From contig OZ316891.1 in the NCBI GenBank assembly GCA_973895155.1, positions 28,711,145-28,775,144 of the forward strand: 64,000 nt of DNA, written 5' to 3'. The notes under the pieces were generated by a model. The model searched no databases. It was not told where the DNA came from and saw only the letters and a list, made by a program, of their open reading frames with translations. The position numbers were made by a program, and so were the translations under genes. Positions 1-48,596 of the stretch are shown here, in pieces. Positions within the stretch are counted from its first letter, which is position 1; each line of letters starts with the position of its first letter. Source of the DNA: Marsupella aquatica (Eukaryota; Plantae; Marchantiophyta).

Positions 1-2403
1 CTCGGCCTGCAGCGTGGCTATCTCTGTCGCGTCCCGCTGGGCTCGCTCCTCGGCCTCCTCCAGGTCTTTCTGCCAGGTGACAGCTTGTTTCTTCAAACTG
101 TCAATCTGGTTCCGGAGTCGTGTAATCTCGGCCTCGTTCCCAGCTTTGGCCTGTTCGGCTAGGGCGGTAAGAGCGTATGCCTTTGCTAACAACTCATCGG
201 CGGTTGCAACCTTGGGTCGTAGTTGCAGAAGCTCAGCCTCTTGAGCCGCCACTTCGTTCTTTAGGTACACGGACTCCACCCGGTACCGCTCTATCCTCTG
301 AAGGGCCTCCGACTGGGCCCGCCCTGCCTTTACGGCGGCAACCAACTCCTAATTGAAGAAACAGGCTACCTTCCGAGCCATGAACTCCCCGGTATCCCGG
401 GCAATTTGATGAGAGAAATCTCCCAGAAGCCCGTTCAGAAACGTACCCTGTACGAAGAGTTCCGGGTGGTCCAAGTTGTGCCTGTCCGGATTTGGGCACG
501 GGCAGACATCAACACGCGCAGGGGCCGGGGCAGTGACGTCCAGCCCTGGGGACATAACGTTGGAAGGGGCCGGAGTATCCTCCTGCAGCGATGTCCGGTT
601 CTCCGGAATTGCCACCGGCGGGTCCTTGGGAGACCCGGGTTCGGGTAAGACCTCTGCCGTACCAACTTCTGTACTTAGCCCGGCTAGTTGGGTCGCATCA
701 ACGGTTGCGACGACCGACCCCTCCGGCGCCTCCTCGGTTACGATTACAGCTATTTGTGGAGGTGGGGTGGGTGAAGCTGGCGTGTCCACTGGACTTCGGG
801 CCTCGGGCTGGGGCCGTCTCTCCAATGCCGGAAAAACCCACCTAGCTGGGACCAGCTTTGTAACGTTGATGCGGGGAAGGGTTCGTCGATCAAACCGGGC
901 GTACCACTCAAGAATGATTTCGATGTGGCTAGCGAAATACGCCTTCCCGCCAATGTACAGCGTCTTCCTTCGCCGCTCCATCTCTTCATGGAATTTCTTA
1001 GCGAAGTACGACGCCCACTTCCTAGGTCGATAGTTCTCGACCTGGATGACCTGGGCGGCGGAGATCTCCCCCCGGGGTTCCATCATGTGGAGAGCGTACC
1101 TCTGGAACTCCAGCCGCTCAGCTATCTCGGGCATGAGGCAGGTCCTCATCACGAACCCGTTGTCTACTGATCCCTCTGAGGGAAAACTTGAAGATTGGTA
1201 CTTGGCCCCCTTGCCCCCGGGAGCCCGTGAGTCGACTCGATGGTCACCTTCGGGTAACCCGAAGATCATCTTGAGCCGTTCTTCTGTGAGGGACATATTC
1301 CTTCCCCGCAGCCGAGTCTGTTGACGTACGTCGTCATAATTCTTGACAAATTCTGTCATGTCCTCCCCGTAGTACCTGCAAGTGTTCCAGGGGAGAGAGG
1401 CGAGGTGCTCAAATCCCTGAGTCTTCAGGTACACCGCATGCTTGGGATGGAGGATGTTGCTGTGAACGTTTTCCCCCATGCGATGCATCGTTACCTTGGC
1501 TACGGCTACCGTGGCCAACGGTAACCCGGATGCACTGGCGGATTCCTTCCTCTTCTTTCCCCGTGACTGACTCGGGGAAGGTGATACTTCCCCATCCTCC
1601 CGATCGGGCCTGGGGAGTGCCACTGCGGTTGGTAACGGGCCCGGGGCGGCCACGGTCACCATGTTGTCTGCTGGGGCCGCTCCTGGGGTCAGAGCAGGGG
1701 GTGGGGACGATATAGTGTCGGCCCCCTGAGCGCTTGTTCCTCTGGGCCGCCTGGTCAAGGGTGGGGTAGCCTCGTCGTCATCGCTAAGATCCACAGCGTT
1801 GATGACGGAGCGTACCTGTGCTGGCTGGGTGATAGGTGGTGGGGTTTGGCTAGGCTGCGGCTGAGGCTGAAGCTGAAGCTGAGGTTGCATGGGCACGGGT
1901 ACGGGTACGGGTACGGGTCCGGCTGAGTTGGTCATGTTGGTTGATGGCCGAGTTCCCATGAAGCTCTGTAGGTGCTGGTAGAAGTTCTCCGAAGCGAGTG
2001 CGGACGCCCTTGTCGAACGGTTGGTACTGGACTCGCCGTTAATGACTGCCCGAACCTGGGCAGGGATGTGGTTGAAGTGATATCGCTGCAGGTCGATTGT
2101 ACCCGGGATATTGAAGACCTCGTCCGGAAGCCGAAGCAATGCTTCCCAGAACCCGATATATTTGTCTCCGTCAAAGAAGTACCCAGATACCTCAGCTGGT
2201 CGGTAAAGCTCGCTCTGAGACGGTTAGTCAAAGTTAAGGACGTAGTGGTGTCGTCCTGCTAGGCGGATGGCTCTCTCGTATTCGCGTTCGATCTCGTATC
2301 GGCGCGGGTTGGCGTGTTTCAATGAATCGGCCAAGTGCCTTCCGGTAGATAGGAACTGCGTCCAGAATCGAATGGCCGAGCTGGAGAGGATCGCGTGCGA
2401 CAT
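1..2403 (-). pseudogene. LTR-embedded extra ORF, 3'-LTR copy (two nonsense codons; runs off the window)
   Basis: ATG at 2403. Stops at ~2224 (TAC>TAA) and ~349 (CAG>TAG) are sense codons in the other LTR copy. Confidence 0.85.
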
Positions 2404-2869
2404 TCAGAGGAGATAGTAGTGGCGACCTAGAGAGAACGAGAGAGCTGGGGTCAAAGCTGGCGCGTGGACTGATGGACTGGTGCACTACAAAGGGTTGGCT
2501 CCCCTTTTATACTTTGAGGGCTTGTCGATCCCCGACGTCTCCTCGACTCCCATAGGTTGAACCGCTCACGCTTGTGGTGTACCGGCCACTCCGCCGGTCT
2601 GAGTCAGCGTGCGTCAGTGGCCGCTTCCTTAAGTTCGTTATACGGACCCGAGGGAGGGGCCCCTCCATGCTCATAACCCGGGTGTGCGAATAGCGACCCG
2701 CCGCCAGCCCAAACCTGAAGTCCCCCTTATTGCCTAATGATGTCCTACCCCTAATGATTACCTAAATACTGTCGTTATGCTAATAATAGCGGCCTAAGAC
2801 CCACCTAACGCGCGTGCCGAGCGCAGTTAGACTGAATCACTCATTAACCGCCGTACCGGCGGCGTCACA
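1..2869 (-). repeat. 3' LTR (partial) of the Ty3/gypsy element
   Basis: About 99% identical by eye to 10098-12972 (roughly 30 substitutions, one 6-bp indel). Begins TG immediately after the purine tract AAGCAGGGAGCTA on the minus strand. Confidence 0.93.
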
Positions 2870-8836: not shown

Positions 8837-8929
8837 TTACTCATATAAATGCAATGGTTAGTACTACGTCCTGATGTATCCTGCCTAGGTGAATACGCAC
8901 ATGTCTCCCCTCTACGATATGTAGAGTGC

Positions 8930-8947: not shown

Positions 8948-8959
8948 AAACAAAGGCTA

Positions 8960-11900
8960 TGTCACGTCGTAGGCTTCGGCCTTAACTCAGACTTCAGCTT
9001 AGACGGGCACATCCCTCGTAAATCTGAGGGTTCGGGCAGGAAGGGAAGCACGTAATGCACCTTATTCTCGTAAACTAGCGCTAAGTGCGCATACTGCTAA
9101 ATACGGACACCTCCTAGGTATGGTTTGTGTTCCGCTGCCGGAACGTACCCTAGTCGATAGCAGGATCGACCCCGGCTTAAGGGCTTCTAAGCCTTCGTGC
9201 TGTCCGCCTTCGATCCGGATTCGATGATACAGGTCCTCAACCCGTGCTTGCAACCACTTACCCGCAGGCTGCACCCTGTGCACGTCTCGGGTAGTGCGTT
9301 CGGCCCGGCGCTGCCACCCATATACGAGAAACCCACACACATATGCGCACACATGCATACAATCTCGATTTACACGAAGGAAAAATGATGGGAAAGGATT
9401 TTTACTACAAAGGGAACATATGCGTACACTTAGTTGACACGACAGCCCTGGAATGCACAGGTTCAAGGCCAAGGGTGCACACTACAACGGAGCCCGGCTC
9501 CGCACTCGCCCGGCAAGCTTAGTCCTACCCCCTCCCCTTGGTACTCTGTCATTCCCAGAGGTCGGGACTCCCCGCATGTCCCGCGGATATCCGACTCTGA
9601 AACTAAAAACCCCCCTGCCTCTACCGAGGGGTGCACTAAATACTAAGAGCCGAGGAACGGGGTGTCCTCCCGCCGAAGATTCGCTGACCAAGGTCCTAAC
9701 TAAGCTGACAGTCAGGCCGGAAAATGGCTGTGTCTTATTAGAAGATCCTAATCTATGCAGGCTGGACAGCAGGGCAGCGCTGCCGTACCTAAGGCAGGTG
9801 CCTGTCCCAAGAGCCTGACTAAGCCAATCCTAATCCTAATCTATTCCTACTCCGCCGCTAATGCCTGGCACGCTTGCCAGAGCCGCCCGAATGGGAACGG
9901 CCATCCCGCTGCCTTCGAAGCCTGTCATTGTCCGCTTTGAGGAGCTGGACCTGGTCCAGCAGAGATTCGTTCTCTCGCCTCGCCGCGTCCGTCTCCTCTG
10001 CTGCCTCCTGACATGCCTCCTCCAGCTGCTGGGCGTCGCTCGCCAGTTTACTCGCCAGCTGGTCCTGCTTCTCGGCCTCGGTTTGGAGCCGCGCCATCTC
10101 GGCCTGCAGCGTGGCTATCTCCGTCGCGTCCCGCTGGGCTCGCTCCTCGGCCTCCTCCAGGTCTTTCTGCCAGGTGACAGCTTGTTTCTTCAAACTGTCA
10201 ATCTGGTTCCGGAGTCGTGTAATCTCGGCCTCGTTCCCAGCTTTGGCCTGTTCGGCTAGGGCGGTAAGAGCGTATGCCTTTGCTAACAACTCATCGGCGG
10301 CTACAACCTTGGGTCGTAGTTGCAGAAGCTCAGCCTCTTGAGCCGCCACTTCGTTCTTTAGGTACACGGACTCCACCCGGTACCGCTCTATCCTCTGAAG
10401 GGCCTCCGACCTGGCCCGCCCTGCCTTTACGGCGGCAACCAACTCCTGATTGAAGAAATAGGCTACCTTTCGAGCCATGAACTCCCCGGTATCCCGGGCA
10501 ATTTGATGAGAGAAATCTCCCAGAAGCCCGTTCAGAAACGTACCCTGTACGAAGAGTTCCGGGTGGTCCAAGTTGTGCCTGTCCGGATTTGGGTACGGGC
10601 AGACATCAACACGCGCAGGGGCCGGGGTAGTGACGTCCAGCCCTGGGGACATAACGTTGGAAGGGGCCGGAGTATCCTCCTGCAGCGATGTCCGGTTCTC
10701 CGGAATTGCCACCGGCGGGTCCTTGGGAGACCCGGGTTCGGGTAAGACCTCTGCCGTACCAACTTCTGTACTTAGCCCGGCTAGTTGGGTCGCATCAATG
10801 GTTGCGACGACCGACCCCTCCGGCGCCTCCTCGGTTACGATTACAGCTATTTGTGGAGGTGGGGTGGGTGAAGCTGGCGTGTCCACTGGACTTCGGGCCT
10901 CGGGTTGGGGCCGTCTCTCCAATGCCGGAAAAACCCACCTAGCTGGGACCAGCTTTGTAACGTTGATGCGGGGAAGGGTTCGTCGATCAAACCGGGCGTA
11001 CCACTCAAGAATGATTTCGATGTGGCTAGCGAAATACGCCTTCCCGCCAATGTACAGCGTCTTCCTTCGCCGCTCCATCTCTTCATGGAATTTCTTAGCG
11101 AAGTACGACGCCCACTTCCTAGGTCAATAGTTCTCGACCTGGATGACCTGGGCGGCGGAGATCTCCCCCCGGGGTTCCATCATGTGGAGAGCGTACCTCT
11201 GGAACTCCAGCCGCTCAGCTATCTCGGGCATGAGGCAGGTCCTCATCACGAACCCGTTGTCTACTGATCCCTCTGAGGGAAAACTTGAAGATTGGTACTT
11301 GGCCCCCTTGCCCCCGGGAGCCCGTGATTCGACCCGATGGTCACCTTCGGGTAACCCGAAGATCATCTTGAGCCGTTCCTCTGTGAGGGACATATTCCTT
11401 CCCCGCAGCCGAGTCTGTTGACGTACGTCGTCATAATTCTTGACGAATTCTGTCATGTCCTCCCCGTAGTACCTGCAAGTGTTCCAGGGGAGAGAGGCGA
11501 GGTGCTCAAATCCCTGAGTCTTCAGGTACACCGCATGCTTGGGATGGAGGATGTTGCTGTGAACGTTTTCCCCCATGCGATGCATCGTTACCTTGGCTAC
11601 GGCTACCGTGGCCAACGGTAACCCGGATGCACTGGCGGATTCCTTCCTCTTCTTTCCCCGTGATTGACTCGGGGAAGGTGATACTTCCCCATCCTCCCGA
11701 TCGGGCCTGGGGAGTGCCACTGCGGTTGGTAACGGGCCCGGGGCGGCCACGGTCACCATGTTGTCTGCTGGGGCCGCTCCTGGGGTCAGAGCAGGGGGTG
11801 GGGACGATATAGTGTCGGCCCCCCGAGCGCTTGTTCCTCTGGGCCGCCTGGTCAAGGGTGGGGTAGCCTCGTCGTCATCGCTAAGATCCACAGCGTTGAT

Positions 11901-12972
11901 GATGGAGCGTACCTGTGCTGGCTGGGTGATAGGTGGTGGGGTTTGGCTAGGCTGCGGCTGAGGCTGAAGCTGAAGCTGAGGTTGCATGGGCACGGGTACG
12001 GGTACGGGTACGGGTCCGGGTCCGGCTGAGTTGGTCATGTTGGTTGATGGCCGAGTTCCCATGAAGCTCTGTAGGTGCTGGTAGAAGTTCTCCGAAGCGA
12101 GTGCGGACGCCCTTGTCGAACGGTTGGTACTGGACTCGCCGTTAATGACTGCCCGAACCTGGGCAGGGATGTGGTCGAAGTGATGTCGCTGCAGGTCGAT
12201 TGTACCCGGGATATTGAAGACCTCGTCCGGAAGCCGAAGCAATGCTTCCCAGAACCCGATATATTTGTCTCCGTCAAAGAAGTACCCAGATACCTCAGCT
12301 GGTCGGTAAAGCTCGCTCTGAGACGGGTAGTCAAAGTTAAGGACATAGTGGTGTCGTCCTGCTAGGCGGATGGCTCTCTCGTATTCGCGTTTGATCTCGT
12401 ATTGGCGCGGGTTGGCGTGTTTCAATGAATCGGCCAAGTGCCTTCCGGTAGATAGGAACTGCGTCCAGAATCGAATGGCCGAGCTGGAGAGGATCGCGTG
12501 CGACATTCAGAGGAGATAGTAGTGGCGACCTAGAGAGAACGAGAGAGCTGGGGTCAAAGCTGGCGCGCGGACTGATGGACTGGTGCACTACAAAGGGTTG
12601 GCTCCCCTTTTATACTTTGAGGGCTTGTCGATCCCCGACGTCTCCTCGACGCCCATAGGTTGAACCGCTCACGCTTGTGGTGTACCGGCCACTCCGCCGG
12701 TCTGAGTCAGCGTGCGTCAGTGGCCGCTTCCTTAAGTTCGTTATACGGACCCGAGGGAGGGGCCCCTCCATGCTCATAACCCGGGTGTGCGAATAGCGAC
12801 CCGCCGCCAGCCCGAACCTGAAGTCCCCCTTATTGCCTAATGATGTCCTACCCCTAATGATTATCTAAATACTGTCGTTATGCTAATAATAGCGGCCTAA
12901 GACCCACCTAACGCGCGTGCCGAGCGCAGTTAGACTGAATCACTCATTAACCGCCGTACCGGCGGCGTCACA
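8960..12972 (-). repeat. 5' LTR, 4013 bp
   Basis: TG...CA termini with 8/10 inverted match (TGTGACGCCG / TGTCACGTCG), followed by the PBS and duplicated at 1-2869. Confidence 0.9.
9858..12506 (-). pseudogene. LTR-embedded extra ORF, 882 aa (one premature TGA at 11124-11126): Pro-rich disordered region, globular plant-transposon domain, C-terminal coiled coil and basic tail
   Basis: ORFs 11124..12506 and 9858..11078 are in frame; the stop is CGA in the other LTR. Same strand as gag-pol. Confidence 0.88.
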
Positions 12973-28927: not shown

Positions 28928-29260
28928 GGTGATGGAAGTTATGATGATAGGATCTCAAATCGAGTTATATCAAGCGATTTGTGAGTTATGCTCTGCCTGA
29001 ATTCTTTAAATCAGTTGTGGCATTGAGGTCTAAGAAATTCAAATGGAAAGAAAACGGTGAAGAAGAAACTTCCTCGTATTGATCAAAGAGCAAATTTCAA
29101 TGTGGGTATTCGGTGTTCAGATGTCAGCGCTCCTGATCCTTCAAGGTGTCGTTTGAGAAAAAAAATTTGATCCTTGGTTCAATCAATAATTCGAAATGTG
29201 CATATCGGTTCACTGAATCGATTGCTTAAGGAAAAATCAAGAATTGTGCTCCAAGGATAG

Positions 29261-29274
29261 TCGTGCTGATAACG
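29261..29274 (-). promoter_or_regulatory. PBS complementary to the anticodon arm of tRNA-Ile (half-tRNA primer type)
   Basis: CGTTATCAGCACGA directly after the 5' LTR, with no TGG/CCA end; this PBS type is known for Bianca elements. Confidence 0.75.
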
Positions 29275-29433
29275 TAATATGGATTAATCATGGACATTCA
29301 ATACACCAGCAAGCTCACTTCCTTCATTGCATTGTGGGAGTGGAAATCTCTCCCTATGTAGTACATGGTATGGCGGTTATGTAACCTCCTATGTTCTAGG
29401 GTAAGTAGGGTTAGGGTTTTGTCCCTTATAACA
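29275..29433 (-). repeat. Copia 5' LTR (159 bp)
   Basis: Identical to 23241-23399. Confidence 0.95.
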
Positions 29434-29689
29434 CATATACGATTGTCGAATGATTTAGTGTATCAATTACCGAGCACACTCTCATACTTGGTATGTTTTG
29501 TAGGGAGACTTATTGTTAGCAAAGATCGCCAACAATATTAGACCCCAACATTGATCACTCCAAAAACTTTACACATTAACCACTCATGGACAATAAAATA
29601 GATTCAAAGATCAAAAAAACTTTCATAATAAGCCGGATATAATTCTCGGCTAGGCATGAAAATCAAATTTTCATGCAATACAACTTTTC

Positions 29690-32600
29690 CCTACATCTTC
29701 AAAATATACCTCACCTCAGACAAGCTAAGGACTAGTTGGCTGACATAAATTTATTCTTGAACACTAACATTAAAGCGATAACAAAAAACCCAATATAAAT
29801 GTTTGCAGGGAACATATGAAAGCCCTCGTGTATGGCGATTGAAGAAATCGTCACAGGAGCATGATGGAAAATAGCAAACTTGGACCCAATATCTTTTTGG
29901 TATCCTTCCATCTGTCTCGTGTGTTGCAACAAACAATTGTTTTCCCCAACCATTTCCCAACTTGATGATGTTCTCTGTCAATACTCGCATCTGCTCCTCC
30001 TCTGATGATTTGATGCGTTTCAAATGCTCTAACGAAAGAGTGACCTAAACTTCAAAATCGATGCAACGGGTCATTCAAGTTTACCATCTCACAAAATGTA
30101 CTGACATTAATTTGTAACTCCAAAGGTGAAGGGGCACTCACCGATGGGGAGACATTTGTCACATGTTCTCTTTTGGAGGGATTAGTTTGCATTCCTAAAT
30201 CCAAGGAAAGCCCTTTCTCAATGAGGAACATAATTTCCTCACTAGCAAGACTGGTCCCTAGCATAACAGGCAAAACATCAGGAATTGGTGGTAAGGAAAC
30301 AATGGAACATCGTGGCTTTCCTCGAAAACAAACATTATTTGGACAAAACCAAGTAAGTCGAGGTACGTTTGATCCAAAAATCCTGTGTGCAACAAAAACC
30401 GCAATAGCCACGCGGCCCCTTGGGTCCAGAAATGATACTTTTTTCACAAAATTTTGACATTCCTCTCGAGTTGCAGACCTACCAAGAAACCCACAGCACT
30501 TTGGGCCGACCCCTTTGGAAGACATTCTACCTATATACCAACTCCCTTGGGGAACTCTTACTTCATGGCATGTCAACGGAGCACTTGACTCGGCAACGGG
30601 CGATGGGACTACAGGTGTAGGGGAAGGAGTAGGAGTTGAATGAGTAGCGATGCGTCTGGGCGGAGTCTGAAGGACCTCAAACAATTCACTCTTAGACAAA
30701 TTGACAACCTCTGGTATCGAAGCTCCCTCGGGCCGATCCATTGATGTTGGCGGCCCTCTTGTATAATTAGGACTAAACTCAGTAGAGTTTAGATTTCGTC
30801 TCCTTGACGCAGTCTTAGCAGGGGATGTAAGAAGAACCGTGTCATTTCGATGAGAGTCCTGGTCAGAGATTTTGTCACTCGCAATTCCCTTCCTCTTTGT
30901 TGATTTTGTTTGCAAATCACCATTTAATGGCCTAGTCCGTATAAGATCAAACTTCCCATTAGCTTCCATCAAATAATTGGTCGCTTTCTCATGAGCGGAA
31001 GCAGAACCAACCATATTTGCATGGCAAAATGCAAGCTCAAAAATTGTAGGCCCTGTACCTCTACTCACACCGGACTCAAATCCGATGTAGCAAGCAACTT
31101 GGAAGGCAACACGATTGGAGTCAACTTTGCAAGCCTCCACTAGAGTCACTTTCTTTTTGGGTTGGGAAGCACGCATGGAAGCATGGACAGATTCCAAACC
31201 AGTGCAATTTGGCATTCTTGTAGACTCCAGAGCGTCCGCCGACTGAAACAAAACACATCAGCAAAATCAACGTAAGTAACGGATTCCACCAATGTTAACG
31301 AAGGTCGCTTGCAATATTTTGATGAGTAGACCATAAAAAATTTAGTAATGATGAAGACCATACTAGCCTGATATAGTTCCCCCACTGTCTCCATCGAACG
31401 ACCCACCAGGAAATCCATCCTTGCAGATAGCGAAGTTTCCCTGGAATACAATTCCCGGATTGCCACCACTCCTTGATCTCCGAAGAAATTATGTAAGCTT
31501 CGACGTACGTGGAGGCATTCCTCAAATGGTCCCATAAAACATAATGCTGGTCGTGATTTTTTTCCAAAATACCTTCATGGGTATGCCTCCGGAGTGATTG
31601 GAAGAAATGAAAAGCATCAGACCTTTCTTTTTCTGGATTAGGGAGACCCTGCCAGAATACATTCCGAACCTCATTCCACCCTGCAGTGGCATTATCTGCC
31701 ATGAAACCATGGATGGTAATGTCGTGCAAACCATTTTTGGATGCGACACTTACCATCAACCTCCAAGCCGTAGACAATGATTCACAACATTCAGACTTCA
31801 GCTCACAAGTAAATATTGTGCAGAGGGCACGGATATTATGATCATAAACGTGTGCACTAAATGTCAGCCAACCAGTAGTAATCCGATGCATAACATCAAA
31901 ACTAACCCATGATCCTTCAAGAGAACCCCCTTTTCTCATTCTTTGAAGAATATCCAATCCAAAACCTGGACCTTTTACGCTCATCTTGAAAACATGAGCT
32001 CGATCAATAATTGTGCCTTGACCGGGGAATAGAAATCTCTGGATGTAAGGAAAATGAATGTTCCTTTGCATGTCCCGAATTGAATCAAACTCCCTTTTCA
32101 AGGGATTCTCCATTTTCACGTTCCTCAAGATGGCTTGGAATTTCTCTTTGGACGCTAGAGCACTCAATGAGCTCCAAATATCCTGAATGTCCTGGGCAGA
32201 AATCCCAGTGGCACTCTCCGGAGCCAAGTGTGACATCAATGACTCCGTTGCATCAATTTTTAGTTGAGCTGGTGTGGCCAAGGGGTTCACTAAATGATGG
32301 TCTCTGATGACCGACTTTGCAGCAATCATGGCCTCCCTCGAAACAAAACTATTCGGTGGGTGGACATAGTATCCGACATGCATGGCAAGCCTGGACATGA
32401 ATCTCACATTTTCCTTATCCACCGAGGAAAGTGGGTACATGTAAAACATTAAGGCAGGACACGTCTCCACACATATAGGCGGTTGGTCATAATGAAAACA
32501 TACTATTCCTCCGGGAGAAACTGCTTCACCAGTCTTGTGGACTCGGTCTCCTTTTGCCCTTCCAGCCCAGGACACTCGATTCCTTCCTTTGCCCTTATCT

Positions 32601-33277
32601 AAGAATGCACACTTCCCATTTTGACATTCAATCGACCCAGAGCACCGTACTTTTGCGAACTGATACAAATCTTTTGGAAAGACATTCGCAGAAGTTGGAA
32701 TAATTCTAGTCCAACGATAGCAATCATTCTCTCGATCCATGTATCTGAGCCCAGATCCTCTTTTAGTGGATGAATCGACTGGGGGAAGCTCAAAAATCGA
32801 GTCCCCATTATAATCTTTGGGAAGACATTGAACATGTTTGACATCCTCTCCCGACTCCAAGAACTTAAGGACAAAGCGAGATATCTCACTAGAGCCTTTA
32901 ACCCTCAATATCATGTCACACGCACTCACTTGATAAACCGAAGAAAATTTATCTGGAGACTCAGTTTTGATTTCACAAACATCAATGTCTGCTTCTACTC
33001 TCTCGGGGGATGTGTCAATTTTTGTAACCAGAGAGTACACAAAACCAGTTTTCAGTCTCCAATGTCGAACGCTATGGACACTCGAAGGCTCAATCCGGGC
33101 AGGACTCAAAATGGAATCCTCTCTCCTCCCGAGTACATCTTGGATGAATGGCCCCTCACATCCAAGTCGTTGACCTAGATAAGTTTCACTCACGATTTTC
33201 TCTCCAATCAATGAAAAAACAGGAAGAAAAATCACATCTCCAGTAGACTCCCGCACAATTCTGATTTGGGATGCCAT
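29690..33277 (-). pseudogene. Two-exon GCM-like/DDE/SWIM transposase, copy B
   Basis: Exon 1 33277-31364 is open (WVSFD, GFMAD, DAFH); intron 31363-31243; exon 2 MPNCTGLESVH...; stop at 30052; SWIM CSCDDF..PCKHLYW near 29790-29870. Confidence 0.88.
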
Positions 33278-34101: not shown

Positions 34102-35124
34102 GACCAAAGACGATAGTGACACAAGTAAGAGATATCACAGAGCCCCTGGAGAATCACGGATACAATCACCAACAGCAGGCGCCTATATCAATGAGCGAGA
34201 GATTGGAATTACCGTGAGCGAGAGATTGGAATCCCCTAGAGCGAGAGATTGGAATCACCGAGGGTGAGCTAGCGCCTAGAATAGACCGAGAGAGAGTCAA
34301 TCCCCAAATGAATCAGTGAGCGTCTAGAATATACATCTGATAGTTTGCTACTCAATATATGGACCGAAAACATAACAAAGACGAAAACTCTCGGAACCTT
34401 CAAAGATGGCCGACCAACGAACCCTATCCCGACCGACGACCCCAAATACCATCCGACCAAACATACATATCCATCGGATTCCCTGGCATCATTTGACACG
34501 TACAGTAACGGATAGATTCGTCCAACGGGTATACAATGGTAATAAAGAATGATAACTTTTGCTAGCGATCATCGCTACCATTAACCATTCTTAAAACGAC
34601 TCGTATTGAGCCTCATATCACTGAAATATCCTATAAATTCAGAAAAAGTGAGAACGTCTTTTGATAGCGACCTTCGCTATCAAAAATTAGAGTTTTCAAC
34701 ATCCAATATTGGAGGTCAATTGGCCTAAATTTAACCATGTTGTTGGCTTCATTTCATTGATATAAATATGGAATAGTTTGATAGTGAGGGTCGCTACCAA
34801 AAGTTAGCATTAAACGGTAACTTGAATTGTCTTATGTTCGCCTTATGTGTTCTAAAAGTTTTTGGATTTGCCGTTAAACATCCATGAATTTAGGTTAGGT
34901 TCCGTTAAACCATCCGTAATTAAGTAGACATTGTCATTAATTAATCTGTTGGTATGACTAATTACCATTGTATATTGTTCCTATTACCGTATGACACGTT
35001 CCAAAATCCGGCTGCTTTCGATGTGAGTATTGGGTAATACCGAAAACCTGAAATTACTGAAAAATTTAAACTTTTTACAGTATTTAAGCCTACTGTTGCT
35101 GTTAAAATGCCAAGTGTAAATTAT

Positions 35125-35235
35125 GGGTTTACGCTGTTACGGGTTTACGGGTTTACGCTGTTACTAGTTTACGCCAATACGGGATTACGGCTTACGCCTT
35201 ACGCGTTTAAGGAAAGTTCACGTTACGGCGCTACG
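35125..35235 (+). repeat. TTACG-rich cluster upstream of the LTR ORF
   Basis: About 10 TTACG / TACG words in ~110 bp. Confidence 0.85.
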
Positions 35236-35397
35236 GCTAACTTCGCAACGGGACTTAGAAACGGATTGGGGACTTCATACCTTGATAGGAATCAAGCACA
35301 GAGTTCAGGCGCTCACTCCTGTATTTTCACCACCCCTATTCACTTGCTCTTTCTCTTCGAAAGCAACCTTCGCAGCAAGCAAATCACCGTTGCAGCT

Positions 35398-37827
35398 ATG
35401 GCGAACCTGGGTGCTGAGGAACAGTATCAAACTAAAGCTCTAGCAGTCTCAAAAGTAGTGGCAGCTCGCATACCACGAGCGCCTGATAGTCTTTCTAATT
35501 TACAAGACTCTTTACAACACTTAGGATTGGAGCGCTTGCTCAGGATCCCCTGGAATGTCGAGCTTGACTCCTACTTGCAGGATTTTGTGAAGGGGACTAT
35601 CATCCCGATTGAATTCAGGCAAACGATTCGAGCTCACCCCAGCCTGTGGACTGTTGAGCAAATTGCTTACGCCTTTGGATGCCCGTCAGAAGGAGAGGCG
35701 TTATATTCCAAGAAGCAGGACTTATTTGCTCCATACTTCTCAGGAACTCGAAATGCCAAGAATGGTTGGAACTTGTCCCAGTGTACTTATCCTGAATTGA
35801 GAGTGCTCATGGAATTTCTGGTACCCATTCTTCATCCGAAAAAGCCAACTCTCTGTCCTGTGGCCTTGGCTAACACCATTGTAGCTGCTCATAGTGGAGC
35901 TATAAAAGTAAATTGGGCCCTACTTCTGTTTAATGTAATGAAGGATCAAGTAAGGAGCTTGGAAGCAGGGAGGACCACTTGCTTACAGAATTATCTCTCT
36001 CAGCTCTATTATACTCATGACTGTTTATATCTGGAGGAAGAGACAGAGAGGGGGTTACTCCTGATTGACTTGGGTATTGAAGAAGAAATTCCTATGGAGG
36101 ACATTGTACATGTCACCCCATTGAATTCGAATGATCAGAACGTTGAGGAGAATGCTGATGTTCCTATGGAGGATACTTCATTAGAAATCCCTACACATTC
36201 TCCTATGCATAGCAGGGAAGTTGTTTGCCAATCAATAAGTAATGAGAATTTCCCTAGCCGGACTATGGATGCAGATCCACTAGAAGCTGAAGAAGTAAGG
36301 AGCATTCATCAACAAGACGATGATGCTACACCAACTGATGCTGCTCCTCATGAGACCACCAGGTCCACTCCTTCGAAGGCAGAGTCGAATCAGCAGCTTA
36401 TTGATAAGTTGATATCTCTCCTCAGTTGTAGTGATGATGGACTATATGATGCTGTTAATAATTTGAGAATGGAGGCTATTAGTTTGGGATCACCATTTCA
36501 TGATCAGCTAAGCCCTGTCAGAATAACCTCTCCCCCAAGAGAACCAGCACCAATGGAGTTTGTGATCTGTACTCCTGTCACTGTACACCCCCCTCCCCTA
36601 GAAACAAGTGAGCCCATTCTAGTAACAGATAGTATCAGCTGTGTGGCTATTGTGGATGACTTGTTAGAACTACTACAGTGTGAACCTCGACAGATAGCAT
36701 CTGTGGTCCGCAACTTGGTCCAACAATGTCCAACTGCTAGTCCTACTTCTAGCCCAGGTTCACAACCTTACAACCCTGATTCCAACTACGAACCCACAGA
36801 AGGACCCACCTACAATCGGTCACAATATGAGCACCCTTTTGACAGAGAAGATCTACCTGAAGACTCTGATCCACCCTCAGATGGTGAAACTTATAGATCT
36901 TATGATAATTCTCTTGAGTCATCCCCAAGGCAGGGATTTGAAGATGTTGATACTGCCTTAAGAACCAATCCAAACTTAGTAGCAGTTGTCACTTCATCTA
37001 CTCAAACACCTCAGAATGCCACCATCGAGAGTAGATACCCGAGACATCCCGAGTCCCAAGTGCACAGGTATGTGGAGACCTGTAAGATTATGCAGGCCAA
37101 CAGACCACCGGTTGGAGAATTTTGGAAATACTACTATCTCAAGAAGACAAAGGCCAGTTATATCTTCGACCTCAAGTGTTTTGGAACTTCCAGACTAGAG
37201 ATGGCACAATTCGATGAGTTTTGGACTGACTCTCTCTATTTCCGACCCATTCTTGCTGTGATGCTACTTCAAGGAGATGTGGAGGTGGAGGATTCAGATT
37301 TAGTTCTGGCATATTTTGGAAATTTGGCAGCTTATGCCCTAGATTTTGTGGTTTCTTTTCTCATGCAGAGTAAGAAATCTACTTCTCCCCAGAACGCTTA
37401 CCTTCCTCGAGAGCCCAAGGTTACCCTTGTTTCAACCAGTTCATTAGCTGAGAAATAGAGAATCTGGAACAATGTCACCTCTCAAACTCTGGCCAACTTC
37501 AATCGGTATTTCAGAGATGTCAAATGGAGGCTTCACCCTTTCTATTCCAGGATGCTGAACTCTGATGAATTTCTATACCATTATCCCCAAGTATATGCTG
37601 CTACTTGCAATAATTATGACGTGATTGGGATATATAGAGAAGCTCTTCGAATAGACATATGTTATCTAAGGAGAAGAATGCCCCTGATGTATCCTGAAAG
37701 GCAATTGAGATGCCTATCCTACTCTCGAGGATCCCCACGCCAGGCTGAGCTGATGGAAGTTACTCAAGCTCGGACTGTTACCCTCGTGGAGCTACTCGAA
37801 CCAGAAGACATCCGACAACAAGCTTAA
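35398..37827 (+). pseudogene. LTR-embedded ORF, 809 aa (one premature TAG at 37456-37458): N-terminal plant-transposon domain, acidic/disordered middle, C-terminal globular region
   Basis: Likely start MANLGAEEQ at 35398; ORF 37552..37827 is in frame beyond the stop; the domain aligns with the 9858-12506 ORF. Confidence 0.85.
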
Positions 37828-38045
37828 GGCAGAATCTAAGTCTTTTTAGTTAAGTTTTAAGAATAGTGCATCTTTCCCTATTTTTCAAAATGTGTTATAG
37901 AGCTTTAAAAGCTATGAAACTTATTTAGTGAGTAGTCTGTACCTAGGACAACCTACTGGCAAAATTTCAGAATTTTCCGAGCCAGGAGTAGAAAGTTAAA
38001 AATAGTTGAATTCGGTAAGTCTTTAAGTCTACCGCATTCACCAGA

Positions 38046-38122
38046 TTACGCCTTTACGTTTTTACCCTTTTACGCGATTACGTCTTTACGATTACGTCTT
38101 TACGCTTTTACGCTTTTACGGG
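38046..38122 (+). repeat. TTACG-rich cluster downstream of the LTR ORF
   Basis: About 8 TTACG words spaced 6-9 bp apart. Confidence 0.85.
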
Positions 38123-39394
38123 TTCTTACTTAGCCATTTCCAGGCTTTTCACTTATTGAATCGTTGTTTTGACTTTTTGAGGAGTATGAAGAGGCATGTC
38201 TCTTCGACCCTATGACCTCTTACCCTGTAGGATTTTACTATAAGACCCCTCCACCACTAGTGTAGAAGTATGGTAAAGTCTAGCAATTTTTGCCTTTCCT
38301 TGGTGTTCTGCCAGTTGATCATGAATGTTAAGAGTTCAAGATCAAGCTTGACACCAGGAGAAGACTTTCCTCCTTCTTGTGGTTTAATTCTTTGAATAAA
38401 TCATAGGAAGTAAAATTCCTTTTGTACAAATCTTTTGAGTTGTGATGACAGATTCCTTGTTGGTGACTCATTGCAATCTCTTGAGTTCTTGAAGTTAACT
38501 CACTGAGTTTAAGTCTTATTTGAAATTGATGGATTTTCTTTCATGTTGCTTAGTACCATCTAAATGTTGAAGTAGCTACCTTTTAGATTTTATCTGAGTA
38601 CCACTTAGAAAGAAAGGATAAGACATGTTTACGGCATTTTAATAGGTACTCTAGTAAGCATTTTAGATCTGAAAAGCAAACGTGGATTTGAAACCTTAAG
38701 TCTTTTCATTTTGACTTATGTCTAAGGAGTAACCTTGGTCTATTCCAGACTCCCTTAGCGTACTTTGAGATTATTTTCTCTTGTGTCTTGTTAATCATTC
38801 CTTTTTCATTAATTTATTGTTACCCAATGCTGAGTTACCATTGAAAACTACTCACCGCTGTGGAGCGATCTTCAAAATACCTTATTAAAGTAATCAATTC
38901 TGATTACTATGTGTTAAAGAGAGTTCTTAAACTCTCATTTGTGTTTTTATGTATCAAACCAACCCCATCTTGTTCTTAACGGGAACGAATACCGAGTTTA
39001 GAGACGTAAAAGAGTTCTTTTGGTTCTCTATAGCAAACTACATTCGATATGGAGGATAGTATTATATCCCGTTTAGAAACGGATCACGGTATTACAAACG
39101 TTCCATTGTACTTCGCACGGCTTGGTCAGTCGAGGAGCGGATGCTGGTACGGTGTCTTTGTACGTGGAGTGTCATCCGTACCCAATGGCGGTCACTCTTT
39201 GGAATAGTCATGCAAATGTTTTTAGGGGTATCAAGCCCAGTGGTGAACCAATGGATCATTCTTCTTTGCCGCGCTCTCAAACTTCTTTCTCCGCCTCCTC
39301 TCTACAGACTACAAACTCAAGCAGAAGAGTGACTCGGTCGACAGTAGAGTGGCAAATTCTTTTCATAGGCTTGAAAACACGAAGAAGATCAGTC

Positions 39395-39850
39395 ATGTCT
39401 CAAGACACACACAATGTTCCGATGGGAGGCAGCAAAATTCTGGACGCGTTCTCCAAGGTGCTTGCTCATCACTCTCTTTTGTTTGGGCTGAACGAAAGGG
39501 GGGACATGCAAGAACCTCCTAGGATTCCACTTTGTCGACTCATGAATATGGACTTGGTGAGGTTGCTCCAGGTGCAATCGGGAGCTATCGACAATCTTGT
39601 CTCCAAGTTCAAGACGAATGGATACGTTGACAAGTTGGCCAAGTTTTATGTTTCTGTCTGTGATGCGGAAGGTGTTGAGATTCTGGTCACCGAAGATATT
39701 CGAGCAACTTGGGATGATGTTTGGGTTCAGCAAAATGCCGCGTTTGAAGCAGAATGTGACGAGAATCCAGAATTTTCGTGCCTTAAGGACAAGATGTTTT
39801 TGGTTTTTGATGGGAACCATCGTCTATATTTGTGGATGATAGTGCACTCA
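39395..39850 (+). pseudogene. Truncated ParB/Sulfiredoxin-like N-terminal domain protein
   Basis: IPLCRL..VR...V..L...F...GY layout followed by FLVFDGNHR (ParB/Srx DGxHR motif). The sequence changes character shortly after the motif. Confidence 0.55.
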
Positions 39851-40606
39851 TCAGTGGATGAAGAAGATACGGAGACTCCCATGCAGATAGTGTCGGCGAC
39901 GGCCGACTGAAGCATGGGTGATATCCCTAGCGGGAACAGAAGTCGGGCCGCTCGCATTTGGCCGACTGGATCCTTCGTTGCGTCCCACAGTTGGGGCATT
40001 CTTCGTCTTTGAGATGAGTTTCCCCTTCTTCAAGATTGGAACCGTCGTCCTCTTGTCCCGAGGTGGTAAGCTATTTGATGCGGGGGTCTCCCGGTCGGTG
40101 TCACTTGGGACAAGTGCCTCCTCCTTTGCCTTCCCCCATGGAGGTGCCATTGAAAGTGAACTAGGACGAGAACAAGAAGCGCGAACAAGAACGTGAAGGA
40201 GGACAACAGCGTGAACTAGGACGAGAAAGAGAAACGAGGACGAGAAGGAGAACAAGAACGTGCACGAAAGCCAAAAAGAACAACTGGGCCCAAATGCGAG
40301 AACGGGAACCACGCACCCGAAAGATGAGCCACAACTGCGACTCAATAAAGAATGGCTTGACAATGAGGACATCGGAGGAGAACGACTAGATATAAGGAGA
40401 TTTTGCACTTGGTCCTGGCTGCCCACTTCAAAGAGGACCCTCTGATATAACTTTTGTGGACGCTTCCTCTCTGACACATTTGGACCCGAACGGATCGGAT
40501 TCGCGAAGATCCAGTGGAGATCTTAAAGCGTGCCAACTTAATGACTCGTACTGTATCGCGTTATCGTACTTATCCTTCCATTGAATGTTTTCAAGTCCAT
40601 TGAAAT

Positions 40607-43115
40607 AGGTAGCGCTAGGCGCTATTATTTATTGCCTTCGTACTCCTCACCCAAGAATGTTTTCACCCAGAGGTAGCGCCAGGCGCTATTATTATTGGCA
40701 TTCGTAGTCCTCACCCAAGGGTGTTTTACACATAGAGGTAGCGCCAGGCGCTAGTAACTATGAACCCGAATCCTGCCGTTGGTAAGACGACAAAACGTCA
40801 TTGATGGAGTGCGTCCAAATCTATAACGACTCTATAATGAGAATGGAACGTTTACTTCTCGTACTCGAATCTCATGATAAACATATTTCATTTCACGTGG
40901 GGCAAATGCATATCCCTCTTTTGAAGCCATGGCTCAAAATATCGTTGTCACGAGGAAGGACACTCTGGATGTAATCACAATTCCCGTCCTCGAATCATCT
41001 GAATCAAAGCGTGTTTCAGAGGAATATTTGGGAGTGAGATTTGATGTCACCAAGGAGTCTATTTTAGCGATCTCGTTAGTGTCGGTTTGTTTGGGGGAGA
41101 CTCCAGTTTTCTATGATGTTGTTCATGGTCTAAGATATTGGACTCTAGAGGCTCAGAAAGAATATGAGGTTTTTGTTTTGAGAGATTCTGGGGCCTCCTA
41201 TACTTGTCCTCCCACAATGGCTGAACTCGATGTCATCGAACTCTCGGAAAGTTCTGGAGATGATAAGCAAGCGACAACTACTCTCGGAGAGAAGATTCTA
41301 GTTTACCCATCCGAGGTTAAAAAGGAGTCTAATGCGGATTGAGAAATGATTGTGCCTTTGACTGTGTACCGGCAGAGTGCAATGGATACAATCTTGAAAT
41401 CCAAAGGTCATAGTGAATTGTCTCGGTTTATAAGGGGGAGTGATTTTGTTCATCACGTAGTGCCTAGTCTTCCCACATCTTACAATGGGAATGTGGTTTT
41501 TGAGTTACCCCCGGTAGACTGTGTGAACGCAACAGGTGAACGTTTGAAAGATATGGATCGTGGTAAGGATTGTTATTATTGGACTCGGATTGTGAAAGCG
41601 TCTTCAAATGTTCTTCCGAAGAAAATGTGGGATTTTGGGAAAGTCCAGTGTACGGGATCGCTGCAATGTCGAAATAATGCTTGTCCGTGGTGGAAAGACA
41701 ACAAGTTTCGAAATAATGAGATGTGGGCAAGAACCCCAAAACTTTTGGGCCCATTCCGAGTTGGGGAATTGATCTCCGAAGGTGGAGTTGTTTGTCACCA
41801 TTGCTCCAAACCTCCGATGTGCGTTGAGGCCTGCCCTGCTCTAATGTTCTACATGTATCCATCTGCAAAAGTTGACGTTAAGTCTTTGGCCCACATATCG
41901 CGACTAGCTGTTCATATGGGATCTCACAATCATCCCAGTTGACGGGTCTTTTCGAGGGAGGCAGAAAAGGTTGCAAAGTCTCATCTGGAGAAGGGATTCA
42001 CTGCAAACCCGATGGCGACTGAGACACTGACAAATACATTTTGCGAGGCCTCTATTGAAGAAATCTCTCTTGAAGAAGAGAAGGAAATCTGGGAGTCCCT
42101 GATGGTCGTCGCATCTCCTCAGAAGTTTGCATCCGTGTTAAGGGTGTTCGTCAAGATCAGAAGGGGAAAGGGGAAATGGAATTTCTTGTGAGGATGCAAA
42201 AGTGTATCCGACTACCTTTTCTTCATAGGTTCTTGCTCCCTGGTCAAGGCTGTCGGGATGAGAGTGCTCATATCTTTAAAATGACCGTAAAAGGTGACGG
42301 TAGTGGTCTGGACCTGCTCCAAAGAATGAAACCTGGTGGGTCGTTAGAGGGTTCATGGGTAAGTTTTGACGTGATGCATCGAAGCACGGCAGATTGGCTT
42401 ACTTTCAGTGCCCATGTATATGATCATCATTACCGGGCACTTTGCACCATATTCACTAGTGAGCTAAAGGCCAAAGATGCAACATCTCTGGAGAGAGCCT
42501 GGCGTTTGATGTTAGAGGTTGCCGATGAAAATGGTTTACAGGATGTTACAATTCGGGGATTCATGGCGGACAATGCTCAGGCTGGTTGGAATGCTGTTCA
42601 AAACGTGTTCTTTGACGGTGTACCCGACCCAGAGCAAGAAAGATCAGATGCCATTCATTTTTGCCAATCTTTTCATCGTCATTCCCGAGAAGGTGTAAAA
42701 TATGGAAAGCACGTAGAGCACAAGGAGATGTGGGATCGTCTTCGGAACACGCCAACTTTCTTGAAAGCATATCAAATCTCTAGGGAAATCGATGACTGGT
42801 GGAGGTCTGGCAATTGTCACTCAGGCAAACTTCGGATGCTGCAAGGGTGGCTGTCTTGGTGGGTTGTCCGATGGAGACAATGGGGGAACTTCATAAGACT
42901 GGTGAGTTATACACTTCTCTAGGATGCATGTTCCCATTAATAGCGCTCGGCGCTAGTGAAGCATGTGTGAGATAGAAGGGTTCCTTATCTGCAATAGTAG
43001 CGTCGAGCGCTAATAATCCATTTGGACTATGAATGATGTAAGGACTACCTTTATTCTATGTTAAACGGTTCTTTACATGGAAATATCATCATCAGTTTAT
43101 TAGCATCTGGCGCTA
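40607..43115. repeat. TAGCGCCAGGCGCTA-type palindromes in copy C
   Basis: 40610, 40674, 40739 (inside a ~64-bp tandem repeat) and 42941, 42998, 43101 (intron). Confidence 0.9.
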
Positions 43116-44718: not shown

Positions 44719-45173
44719 ACTGTTGCTTTATCGTTGAACAACTACAATTGTAGTTTGTCTTTTCTAACGGGCAGAAGTGTGAGTTCTTAAAGTGTTGTTT
44801 TTTTAGGGTTGTATGACTTTGTTTCGACTTCATATTTCGTGGCAATATATTGGAGTCCTTGTGTGAAATTATCAAGAAATTTCCTCTGATGTTGTACAAT
44901 GGTGGGACCCACCATAATATTGTCCGCACAATTATTGCATATATGGATGCTACATACCGTGAAGAGAAGAAACTAAAATGCATACAAGAAAAAAAAATAC
45001 TCATACAAGAAAACAGAAACTCATACAAGAAAACAGAAACTCGTACGAGTAAATAGATATGCTCATACGAGGAACTTGTTTACTCGTACGAGACAAAATT
45101 TTGCTTGTACGAGGCAAAATTGGCTCGTATGAGAATATCTATTTACTATTTGCTAGCACGGTGGTTATACCCC

Positions 45174-46593: not shown

Positions 46594-46742
46594 TGTAGTT
46601 TGCTATGAAGAACCAAAAACACATTTATAGGTCTTCAAACTCGGTATTCGTTCCCGTAAAGAACAAGATGGGGTTGATTTAAGAACTCTCTTTAACACAT
46701 AGTAATCAGAATTGATTACTTTACTAAGGTATTTTGAAGATC
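46594..46742 (-). repeat. 3' terminal fragment of the 35022-39042 LTR family, inverted
   Basis: Reverse complement of ~38867-39042 with an internal deletion; ends ...GCAAACTACA. Confidence 0.85.
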
Positions 46743-48596
46743 TTTGGACACATTTCAAAGTTTATATGGAGAGCTTTGATCTTGAACTCAAATCAAAGGC
46801 TTGTGAGGACACGACACCGTTTGAGGAGGGAGTTATGTAATATAGTACATTAGTTAGAAATGATAGAAAAATTATAAATTTTGAACTTTTTCTAAGTCAA
46901 AGGTGCAGTATAGCTACATTTTGTAACCATTTAGATCGACTGGACACTTTACCTAATACCATGCTACACCGAAGGCTTCTTCATGTACTTGATCTTGAAC
47001 GACAACGGAAGTCCTTACCTTTCTATCGGCATCACACTCAGGATATGGATGCAATTCGAGAAGCTATTCAGACCAACACCTACACCAGAGCTCAGCAACC
47101 AAATTCCACGACGCTACTCCAACAAGATTAGCTCTACTATGACCATAGTTAAGTCATATAGATCTACGCAATTTTAGTTAAATAGTTAAAGTAGTCAGAA
47201 AAGTCTCATACTTTTCCAGGAGATAGTCCTTACGTAGTAGAACCTACCCTGAAAATCTCAACTCAAACCGACCTGTGGCTTGAAAGTTAAAAATATTTTA
47301 GTTTTGTTGTTTTCTGCATAGACGCGAAAGCGCTTGTGCGCCTATGAGCTTATGCGCGCATACGCCCAGCACTTAGAAAATTTTCCGGTTTTTTTGTTTT
47401 CTGCAACATTTTTAACACTTTTACCTATTTTATTGAGATACTTAGGCACCTCAGAAAAGTCTCATATTTTGCTAGCATGAAGAATATACATCAGAGACCA
47501 CTTCAACGAAGTCTCACCTTTTTATGACGTTTATTTTAGAAATTAAAATTTGGATAAAACCCCTATTCATTAGTTTTACCAAAAATTCCCTTTTACAATA
47601 GTTAACACCTGAAATGTCTTTTAGTTAACTTTTCATTCCAGGAACATTCCACTGAACCTTAGGTACTTTTGTAGTACGATTTTATTATTTTACTTTTACC
47701 CATGACCCTTAAGATAAGAAAGGGCATGTCCTTTCATTATCTTATTTCCCTTTGGTTCCTCCTACCCTATAAGTAGTTGAATTTCTGTTACTTTTAGTGT
47801 GAAGAAATTTCATGAGCGCTCAGTTGCAAGATTGCAACTTTGTTACCTCCATTTGTAACAAGCACTCCATTGTATATGAGTACTTAATACAAATGAATTC
47901 TTCTCCCTTCAAGTCTAAATGAATGAGAAGTTTGGACCCTTGAAGTAAAATTATTGTGATTGTTAAATCTTTTGAGTATGTGTAAATAGATTCCTTGTTG
48001 GTGATGTTTCACATATTCCTTAGTTCTTGATGCATAGTTTTTGACGTGACATTGTTTGTGCACGGGATGCAAAGATTGTTACTTACCAATTACTTATGGC
48101 TTCAAATTTGATTATGATGGTGTCTCTTATTTGTGACATAAAGTACCGATTGGATGCTGAAGTGATTGGTTGTTAATCTTAACTTAGTACCTCGAAAAGA
48201 AAGGTTGGGATCTGTAGACGACACCCTAACAACCATCCCAGTAAAGTATTCCATTCCAGAAATGTTCTTACAAGTTCAATACTTTAAATCATCTCAAATG
48301 AAGTTATGTTGAGGAGTCACCTTGGTTGTTTCCTAACTCCCTCACCATACCTCAAGATTTTCATTGTGTTTTGTTAATTGTTTCCATTTGTTAATTTTAT
48401 TTACAATGTTAAGTAGACATTCAAATCTATGCCTTGCTGAGCAATCATAGTAAAAGGCTCACCTTTGTGTTTTTGTTACTTAAGTCATTCAAAAGTGCTA
48501 AATCATAGAAAATCATTCCTTACATGTTCTTCCATGGGAACGAATACCGAGTTTTGGATCTTAAATGTTTATTTATGTCCCTAGTATGATACTACA
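46743..48596 (+). mobile_element. 3' end of a Ty3/gypsy element (probably chromovirus-type): pol tail, PPT and 1761-bp LTR (46836-48596)
   Basis: ...FDLE...EDTTPFEEG tail, PPT GAGGAGGGAGTTA, termini TGTAATA...TACTACA. Shares GGGAACGAATACCGAGTTT, AGATTCCTTGTTGGTGA and AGGAGTNACCTTGGT blocks with the solo LTR. Confidence 0.75.

Follow-up and report, generated by a model that had tools for sequence, protein, structure and literature searches.

A Solo LTR with an Accessory Gene

The window, that is, the whole stretch of 64,000 nucleotides from Marsupella aquatica analyzed here, holds at positions 35022..39042 (+ strand) a solo LTR with an accessory gene inside, which belongs to a family of plant LTR retrotransposons present in multiple copies. 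On inspection of the sequence the unit measures 4021 bp, begins with TG (35022-23) and ends with CA (39041-42), and it lies between two copies of a perfect 5-bp target-site duplication, TTCGA (35017..35021 and 39043..39047, + strand), exactly as the initial annotation had claimed. The empty-site joint found in the reads skips 4026 bp (4021 + 5) in 4/4 runs, which rules out a 4-bp NCGN (Phygy-type) duplication, and read depth rises stepwise at 35022, also in 4/4 runs. In other copies either a polypurine tract (PPT) or unrelated flanks adjoin 35022. A purine tract precedes 35021 in runs X3 (2 contigs) and X4 (5-contig consensus), X2 has a different purine-rich end, and X1 shows no PPT among the loose ends listed. 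The duplication, the empty site and the upstream PPT of other copies together support the solo LTR that had been proposed, and the tract, being upstream of the ORF-bearing unit, places the ORF in the LTR and not in an internal region. Inside the unit no terminal direct repeats were found, and the claimed absence of gag/pol is borne out by Pfam, where the two pieces of the ORF match 0 families. The whole LTR is inserted into a multi-copy host repeat.

The accessory ORF (35398..37827, + strand) runs from an ATG at 35398 to a stop at 37825-27. Its previously given length of 809 codons is correct, but the frame is not open: codon 687 (37456-37458) is an in-frame stop, so that this copy is a pseudogene. 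An upstream ATG at 35107, although in frame, was rejected as the start, since translation from it would cross a repeat array and the related protein P0003 begins at the equivalent of 35398. Three relatives (P0003, P0182 and P0183) are open over 808 aa with 66% identity. Both folded regions are conserved in them and the linker is variable. The N-terminal domain (35455..36087; aa 20-230), near Transposase_32/ATHILA ORF1, has a predicted VANC21-like fold. It is followed by an acidic, Pro/Ser-rich and faster-evolving linker (36088..37020; about aa 231-541), which is 26-68% identical to P0003, depending on the stretch of 50 columns compared, and has net charges of -22 and -14 per 100 aa; a relative with 365 bp skipped in the linker region occurs in 2/4 runs. 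The conserved C-terminal region (37021..37824) is 75% identical to P0003 and has no Pfam match, and a word-based search of shorter proteins found no further homologues of it (0/113 candidates). In the wider set of relatives, 802 clusters retain the N-terminal domain. Most relatives carry coiled-coil tails after it, and disordered tails also occur. Searches for the genomic context of relatives gave 437 and 401 pattern matches in metagenome contigs (alignments A1 and A2, respectively), with 0 confirmed in either, and 0 in viral contigs. The earlier suggestion is supported that the accessory gene is conserved and would be labelled hypothetical in an annotation.

The gene is flanked by two tandem arrays, each upstream of a promoter-like stretch. 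The first (35121..35227, + strand) consists of 7-8-bp repeats with a TTACG core, which are candidate binding sites; the 376 bp ahead of the ORF contain 9 TTACG (shuffle mean 1.1, maximum 5 in 1000). The second (38046..38120, + strand) lies between the ORF end and a TATA-like site, an interval that also contains 9 TTACG (shuffle mean 0.85, maximum 4 in 1000). The TATA-like site itself, CTATAAGA (38238..38245, + strand), is a candidate for the main LTR promoter, and as such would put the accessory ORF in U3. Related copies depart at 38230, as seen in loose ends, into another TATA-like sequence. The 5' end of the LTR was also considered as a duplicated LTR start, a possibility ruled out by the confinement of the match to the TTACG arrays.

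Related and Neighboring Elements

A related LTR of 1.76 kb without the gene is found at 46836..48596 (+ strand), preceded by an internal remnant of ~90 bp and a polypurine tract (about 46820-46835). Its similarity to the 4-kb LTR is confined to the 3' part of the latter (score 69, where the best of 100 shuffles reached 35), and in a lenient alignment its TATA-like site falls near the one at 38238..38245; the 5' head of the 4-kb LTR matches it at chance level (24/100 shuffles reach the score), and a six-frame profile search found no gene copy within it. The relative formerly delimited at 46743-48596 is therefore a related LTR in its 3' part only, the LTR proper being 46836-48596 and without a gene, and the label "chromovirus-like" is unsupported, the 31-aa (31 codons) remnant in front of it having no Pfam match. 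On the opposite strand, a fragment at 46594..46742 resembles the 3'-terminal ~176 bp of the solo LTR (77%) and adjoins a degenerate protease/RT-like region.

The neighboring Ty3/Gypsy element (1-12972), on the - strand, displays the Gypsy domain order and RT motifs that we take to be Athila-like. Its ORF-bearing 5' LTR (8960..12972; ~4.0 kb) has a candidate end at 8960, 12 nt before a PBS-like TGGCGC, and is 98.7% identical to the 3' LTR (1..2869), which starts with TG directly after the PPT and runs off the window. Inside the 5' LTR lies a homologous ORF of 882 codons (12506-9858) with a stop at 461, and the copy in the 3' LTR is broken by two stops, at codons 60 and 685. In this family as in that of the solo LTR, the repeat that bears the ORF follows a PPT.

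The two LTRs proved, as previously proposed, to be unrelated at the DNA level: blastn yields only 13-mers, and the best local score of 30 compares with a top score of 29 among 20 shuffles. The proteins, in contrast to the DNA, align significantly, both by BLASTP (27% identity over 120 aa, E 3e-5) and by hhalign (143 columns, NWA/KWA among them; E 4e-6, prob 87), which confirms the colinear motif pairs of the initial annotation; the shared domain is indeed N-terminal (aa ~20-230) in the solo LTR and central in the neighboring protein. In a quick tree of 88/111 rows (23 near-identical JGI rows were excluded), the domain of the neighboring element falls outside the 87 other rows, from which a branch of 3.6-4.0 changes per site separates it. 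This is a long branch, and its placement is unsure. A word-based homologue search with the same domain returned 0/392 candidates. As judged from these comparisons, the homology of the two ORFs is at the superfamily level only. Since extra ORFs of plant Gypsy elements are known to encode a superfamily of Transposase_32/ATHILA ORF1-type domains, independent relocation into the LTRs is as plausible as a single inherited LTR-resident family. The idea of one domain kept in the LTRs of distinct families consequently holds for the homology and for the location of the gene, at that level. Likewise, the gene of the proposed undescribed accessory system is conserved, but its domain resembles the known Transposase_32/ATHILA ORF1 in language-model features and VANC21 in predicted fold.

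Affinities of the N-Terminal Domain

In the Atlas, which compares language-model features, the named clusters that come closest are those of Transposase_32 (0.91-0.92) and of ATHILA (17% of members), an assignment on which 8 of the 10 best named matches agree; the top similarity of 0.92 comes with 167 shared features, below the 170 typical of the same family. At the Pfam gathering score neither Transposase_32 (PF20167) nor ATHILA (PF03078) is matched by the window's proteins, and among 114 relatives one reaches E 0.005 (17.2 bits vs a cut-off of 45). PMD (PF10536) and Transposase_28 (PF04195), which with Transposase_32 had been put forward for comparison, also have no Pfam match in these proteins and are not among 25 of the 29 families listed for 114 members. 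PMD and DUF1985 appear as weak Atlas leads (0.84 each) for the neighboring element's domain only, and DUF1985 has no Pfam match. The N-terminal domain is predicted to adopt the fold of VANC21, the closest solved structure (PDB 9LNJ, 9LNK; 8-9% identity); PDB sequence searches and a viral fold search gave no significant match.

These affinities invite comparison with several known systems. VANC, described as dicot-specific (PMC13547354), acts in VANDAL elements at tandem motifs as an anti-silencing factor (Hosaka 2017; PMC5735166). The 4-kb LTR similarly has tandem short-motif arrays in its non-coding DNA, absent from the LTR of the neighboring element. VANDALs, however, are MuDR DNA transposons, whereas the carrier here is an LTR retrotransposon, with the gene as one long ORF inside the terminal repeat and without a DUF1985 match. 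The extra ORFs of Athila ORF1/Transposase_32 type (PF03078, PF20167; Neumann 2019, PMC6317226; PMC11728184) share the sense orientation, and a location in U3 would put the accessory ORF, like them, downstream of pol on the genomic RNA; in relatives, coiled-coil or disordered tails follow the domain. Yet the described ORFs are internal, between pol and the 3' LTR, while the gene examined here lies downstream of the PPT. The plant mobile domain (PMD), known as PMD-A from Gypsy/Ogre elements and also present in the host proteins MAIN, MAIL1 and MAIL2, is another retrotransposon-borne accessory domain proposed to bind DNA, and PMD-C is reported to be structurally similar to VANC and to oppose Polycomb silencing at motifs (PMC5418596; bioRxiv 2024.09.27.615353). 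The Retand TRP28 domain (PMC11963269) is also proposed to bind DNA, but its ORFs are antisense and internal.

Coding sequence within an LTR is familiar from retroviruses (MMTV sag in U3, the overlap of HIV nef), as are transactivators of the own LTR (foamy virus Tas and HTLV Tax, the latter with LTR repeats). This is an analogy of layout only; no sequence or fold relation to the accessory ORF was found.

A Putative Anti-Silencing Module and Its Alternatives

We put forward, at roughly even odds, that this solo LTR carries a conserved accessory gene whose N-terminal domain, with its predicted VANC21 fold, binds specific DNA sequences and serves the element that encodes it as an anti-silencer or activator. 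The gene would descend from the sense extra ORF of Athila-type elements, between pol and the 3' LTR, and would have entered the LTR when plus-strand priming switched to a PPT upstream of it. Its own transcription may start at a promoter that follows the first TTACG array, with genomic RNA driven by the TATA-like site behind the second; the protein would bind the CG-containing arrays and keep host silencing away from both promoters, as VANC does in VANDAL. Because of its location in the LTR, the gene would be copied twice per insertion and survive in solo LTRs, which would keep gene, candidate promoter and target sites and could supply the protein in trans.

A less favored, somewhat improbable scenario keeps the same anatomy and fold for another nuclear job, the protein tethering the integration complex to chromatin, centromeric or repeat DNA, or handling element RNA, with the arrays as unrelated promoter repeats. 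Function is not fixed by fold, the neighboring element lacks the arrays, the solo LTR sits in a multi-copy host repeat, the coiled-coil tails of most relatives are typical of scaffolds, and PMC7264820 describes the roles of plant extra ORFs as an unsolved matter. Nevertheless, the nearest match among solved structures is an anti-silencer bound to DNA, PMD relatives counter silencing at specific DNA motifs, and arrays stand on both sides of the gene, each ahead of a promoter-like stretch.

An env-like or particle-associated protein, acting at virus-like particles or membranes as proposed for Athila sense extra ORFs, is unlikely. The nearest Atlas clusters and the sense orientation fit such a role, as does one borderline hydrophobic segment in the C-terminal region (aa 635-653; Kyte-Doolittle 1.57, vs 1.73 in P0003), but the neighboring element's ORF and 3/3 other relatives checked lack such a segment (maximum 0.8-1.1) and have basic NLS-like patches, and the viral fold search is without a match. 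In a sunflower Athila, moreover, the Transposase_32 protein is predicted to be nuclear, with the transmembrane helix in a separate ORF (PMC11728184).

We give similarly little credence to inert cargo or a decaying relic, copied merely via its LTR location. The premature stops in 3/3 ORF copies of the window and the gene-less LTR at 46836..48596 would agree with decay; against it speak the three open relatives, the concentration of conservation in the two folded regions, the domain's retention in 802 clusters, and near-identical copies with stops at different positions. Finally, a non-autonomous element whose internal region holds the ORF, flanked by a degenerate 5' LTR and a 3' LTR of ~1.1 kb, to which a lenient alignment of the first 250 bp with 37930-38200, greater read depth over the 3' end and the lack of any full-length carrier seen might point, is very improbable, as the resemblance lies in the TTACG arrays (31/300 shuffles reach the score without them), terminal direct repeats are absent, no PPT precedes 37928 while one precedes 35022 in other copies, and the neighboring element has two ~4-kb ORF-bearing LTRs.

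Implications

What the extra ORFs of plant LTR retrotransposons do is treated as a standing question in PMC7264820 and PMC6317226. The anti-silencing reading makes this locus a concrete candidate answer: a domain modelled on VANC21, set between two CG-containing motif arrays, with EMSA probe and methylation target readable straight from the LTR sequence. A new VANC-like protein-motif pair would also be of interest for targeted epigenome editing. Solo LTRs, commonly seen as dead ends, can retain a complete gene because it is located in the LTR. More tentatively, and with the balance against it, plant LTR retrotransposons might hold a VANC-type sequence-specific anti-silencing module (gene, promoter and tandem targets) wholly in the LTR, so that insertions carry two and solo LTRs stay trans-acting cassettes. 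If so, anti-silencing would be the role of the "env-like" extra ORFs that have long gone unexplained in plant Gypsy elements, and VANC, PMD and Athila-ORF1/Transposase_32 would belong to a single ancient superfamily of counter-defence proteins of transposons, which probably predates its flowering-plant examples.

A Gene within a Solo LTR

The 4-kb unit, a plus-strand solo LTR, is 4021 bp long, begins with TG at 35022 and ends with CA at 39042; TTCGA abuts both ends, as described in the initial annotation. No terminal direct repeats were found within it, and Pfam returned 0 matches in either piece of its ORF, in agreement with the claimed lack of gag and pol. The stretch is present in five public runs, of which the four containing 44–54% of its words (X1–X4; organisms A and B, two studies) were used for contig comparison. 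In all four, a joint from 35017 to 39044 skips 4026 bp, equal to the unit together with a single target copy. This joint represents the empty site, which can be seen because the flanking sequence is also repetitive. The LTR inserted just upstream of an ORF at 39185–39910 with 0 Pfam matches, its target being a multi-copy host repeat (34600–35021, 39048–39910); a further version of the empty site, with 18 other letters, occurs in 4/4 runs. All 30 bins are covered by contigs 80% to over 99% alike, and the family must therefore have many copies.

Depth rises at 35022 in each of the four runs, and many contigs begin exactly there (101-bp stretch across the left end). The loose ends before 35022 are unrelated flanks, apart from purine tracts ending GAGGAGAGGGCT in two X3 contigs, one at depth 439, and GAGAGGGCT in an X4 consensus of five contigs. 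A similar tract precedes both the LTR at 46836 and the 3′ LTR of the neighboring element. Thus, in these other copies 35022 is the start of the 3′ LTR, and the gene lies inside it; the alternative of an ORF in the internal region is contradicted by this polypurine tract (PPT) upstream of the ORF-bearing unit. Neither a primer binding site (PBS) behind the right end nor a full carrier was seen among the run contigs.

The accessory ORF has its ATG at 35398 and an 809-codon frame to 37827; the proposed length holds, but the frame is interrupted by a stop at codon 687 that the initial annotation overlooked. Three relatives (P0003, P0182, and P0183) are open over 808 aa, with 66% identity. By region, identity to P0003 is 80–84% (aa 51–200), 70–80% (aa 551–809), and 26–60% in the acidic middle, which is the pattern of a constrained gene. 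In X2 and X4, contigs of a related subfamily lack 365 bp of linker (36455–36821) and depart from the sequence after 37379, thus indicating gene length variants in the family. The N-terminal domain, predicted to adopt a VANC21-like fold (that of the VANDAL anti-silencing protein), is common to 27 JGI proteins at 27–31%, and a profile search with it gave 802 clusters at E ≤ 0.001 (430 at 1e-10). Among 13 long relatives inspected, the domain is N-terminal in most, followed by coiled-coil-like and low-complexity tails. The taxa assigned to related clusters are Streptophyta, which marks the host as a plant, and the style of the genes would suggest a non-seed plant. No homologues of the C-terminal region were found outside the P0003 cluster, and scans for the genomic setting of domain relatives returned nothing.

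A Homologous Gene in the Neighboring Gypsy Element

The neighboring Ty3/Gypsy element (1–12972, minus strand) is a cleaner case of a gene inside an LTR. Its 2837–8836 region matches Pfam gag, protease, RT, RNase H, and integrase, and gag-pol is flanked by two repeats that share 98.7% identity across 2876 bp. Both begin with TG (at 12972 and 2869), which in the 3′ repeat immediately follows a PPT. A PBS-like TGGCGC follows the candidate LTR end at 8960 at a distance of 12 nt. Each repeat contains the ORF, which is 882 codons long in the 5′ LTR; one copy is broken by a stop at codon 461, the other by stops at 60 and 685. AATCCT-type hexamer repeats occur just after the ORF of this LTR (9826–9853) and in the insertion-site flank (12973–12990), possibly reflecting target preference. 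Adjoining the element, a C-5 cytosine DNA methylase fragment (14310–15221, plus strand; PF00145, E 5e-8) may be part of a mobile element.

The two LTRs share no real DNA similarity that we could find, as initially noted, and the proposed homology of their genes is borne out by profiles. BLASTP aligns the ORFs at 27% over 120 aa (E 3e-5), and hhalign their domains over 143 columns (probability 87, E 4e-6). A 29-domain profile built without the neighboring ORF scores it at 16.0 bits (best of 2000 shuffles 2.3); a 146-domain profile, likewise built without it, gives 20.7 bits (E 1.1e-8; best of 2000 shuffles 2.1), with a slight bias, absent from the 29-domain test, in that the neighboring ORF was one of six rows in the query of the search that supplied the 146 domains. 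A quick tree of 88 rows places the neighboring domain on a branch of 3.6–4.0 changes per site outside the rest, and the relationship, judged from these comparisons, is one of deep, distant homology. A gene within the LTR is a property of both these DNA-unrelated families.

Other Elements in the Window

The LTR at 46836–48596 has only its 3′ part in common with the 4-kb LTR (score 69, where 100 shuffles reach 35 at most), and profile searches detected no copy of the accessory gene in it; nothing supports the chromovirus-like label given to 46743–48596. A degenerate Gypsy-type protease/RT-start region (45139–46592, minus strand), which we take to resemble fungal-like elements, abuts a related-LTR fragment that is itself back to back with the PPT and LTR at 46820–48596, in a nested, rearranged cluster. 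Telomere-like TAAACCC repeats lie just beyond the 46836 LTR, and a 30-bp satellite forms two inverted arrays that may be the ends of a DNA transposon (48628–48651, 50067–50207, 50986–51314).

A two-ORF element occurs in three copies with 65–74% DNA identity (16464–20280, plus; 30052–33277, minus; 41346–44718, plus), the first with 0 Pfam matches. Its Cys/His clusters are reminiscent of fingers of the GCM and SWIM types and of a MuDR-like transposase, and it is possibly an undescribed DNA transposon family. A Ty1/Copia element (23241–29434, minus) has 160-bp LTRs 100% identical, and thus inserted very recently; its pol is split into three ORFs, and its gag start, we assume, recalls the Bianca lineage. 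The plus-strand ORF at 52841–53692 (Pfam 0 matches) probably belongs to a host gene as its first exon, and its end is reminiscent of the plastid SecY2 translocase.

Putative Function

Plant LTR retrotransposons are described as carrying extra ORFs of unknown function either before gag or in the interval from pol to the 3′ LTR (PMC7264820, PMC6317226, PMC11728184, PMC12786077); Gypsy elements are stated to encode PMD-A (PMC5418596), and VANC to resemble MAIN/PMD structurally (bioRxiv 2024.09.27.615353, PMC13547354). We found no paper on a gene, or a VANC-fold protein, inside a plant retrotransposon LTR, in a search that mostly covered literature outside subscription; LTR-located eORFs could be listed in the supplements of Neumann 2019. 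The feature is real, an accessory gene of VANC/PMD/Athila-ORF1 type inside an LTR. By the defining tests the protein belongs to neither VANC nor Transposase_32, and a likeness to VANC in function is hypothetical.

Flanking the ORF are two arrays of 7–8 bp repeats with a TTACG core (35121–35227 and 38046–38120, nine copies each). The first precedes the ORF, and the second precedes a TATA-like site at 38238. These counts exceed shuffle maxima of 5 and 4 (1000 shuffles), and together comprise 18 of the 41 plus-strand TTACG copies of the window. VANC targets are short motifs that tandem repetition has amplified within the element's non-coding parts (PMC5735166). Against this parallel count the absence of a TTACG array from the neighboring LTR, the clear TATA upstream of its ORF, so that the gene there might lie in R/U5 rather than U3, and the commonness of tandem arrays in plant Gypsy elements (PMC11963269). 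That the protein binds these particular arrays is less likely than not, and the odds that it is an anti-silencer or self-activator are about even.

In this context, we put forward that the gene could derive from an Athila-type sense extra ORF that came to lie in the LTR through priming at a PPT upstream of it, and that the 4-kb LTR may comprise two promoter modules. The protein would bind the TTACG arrays and relieve silencing, with solo LTRs supplying it in trans. The anti-silencing hypothesis for the LTR-resident gene is directly testable.
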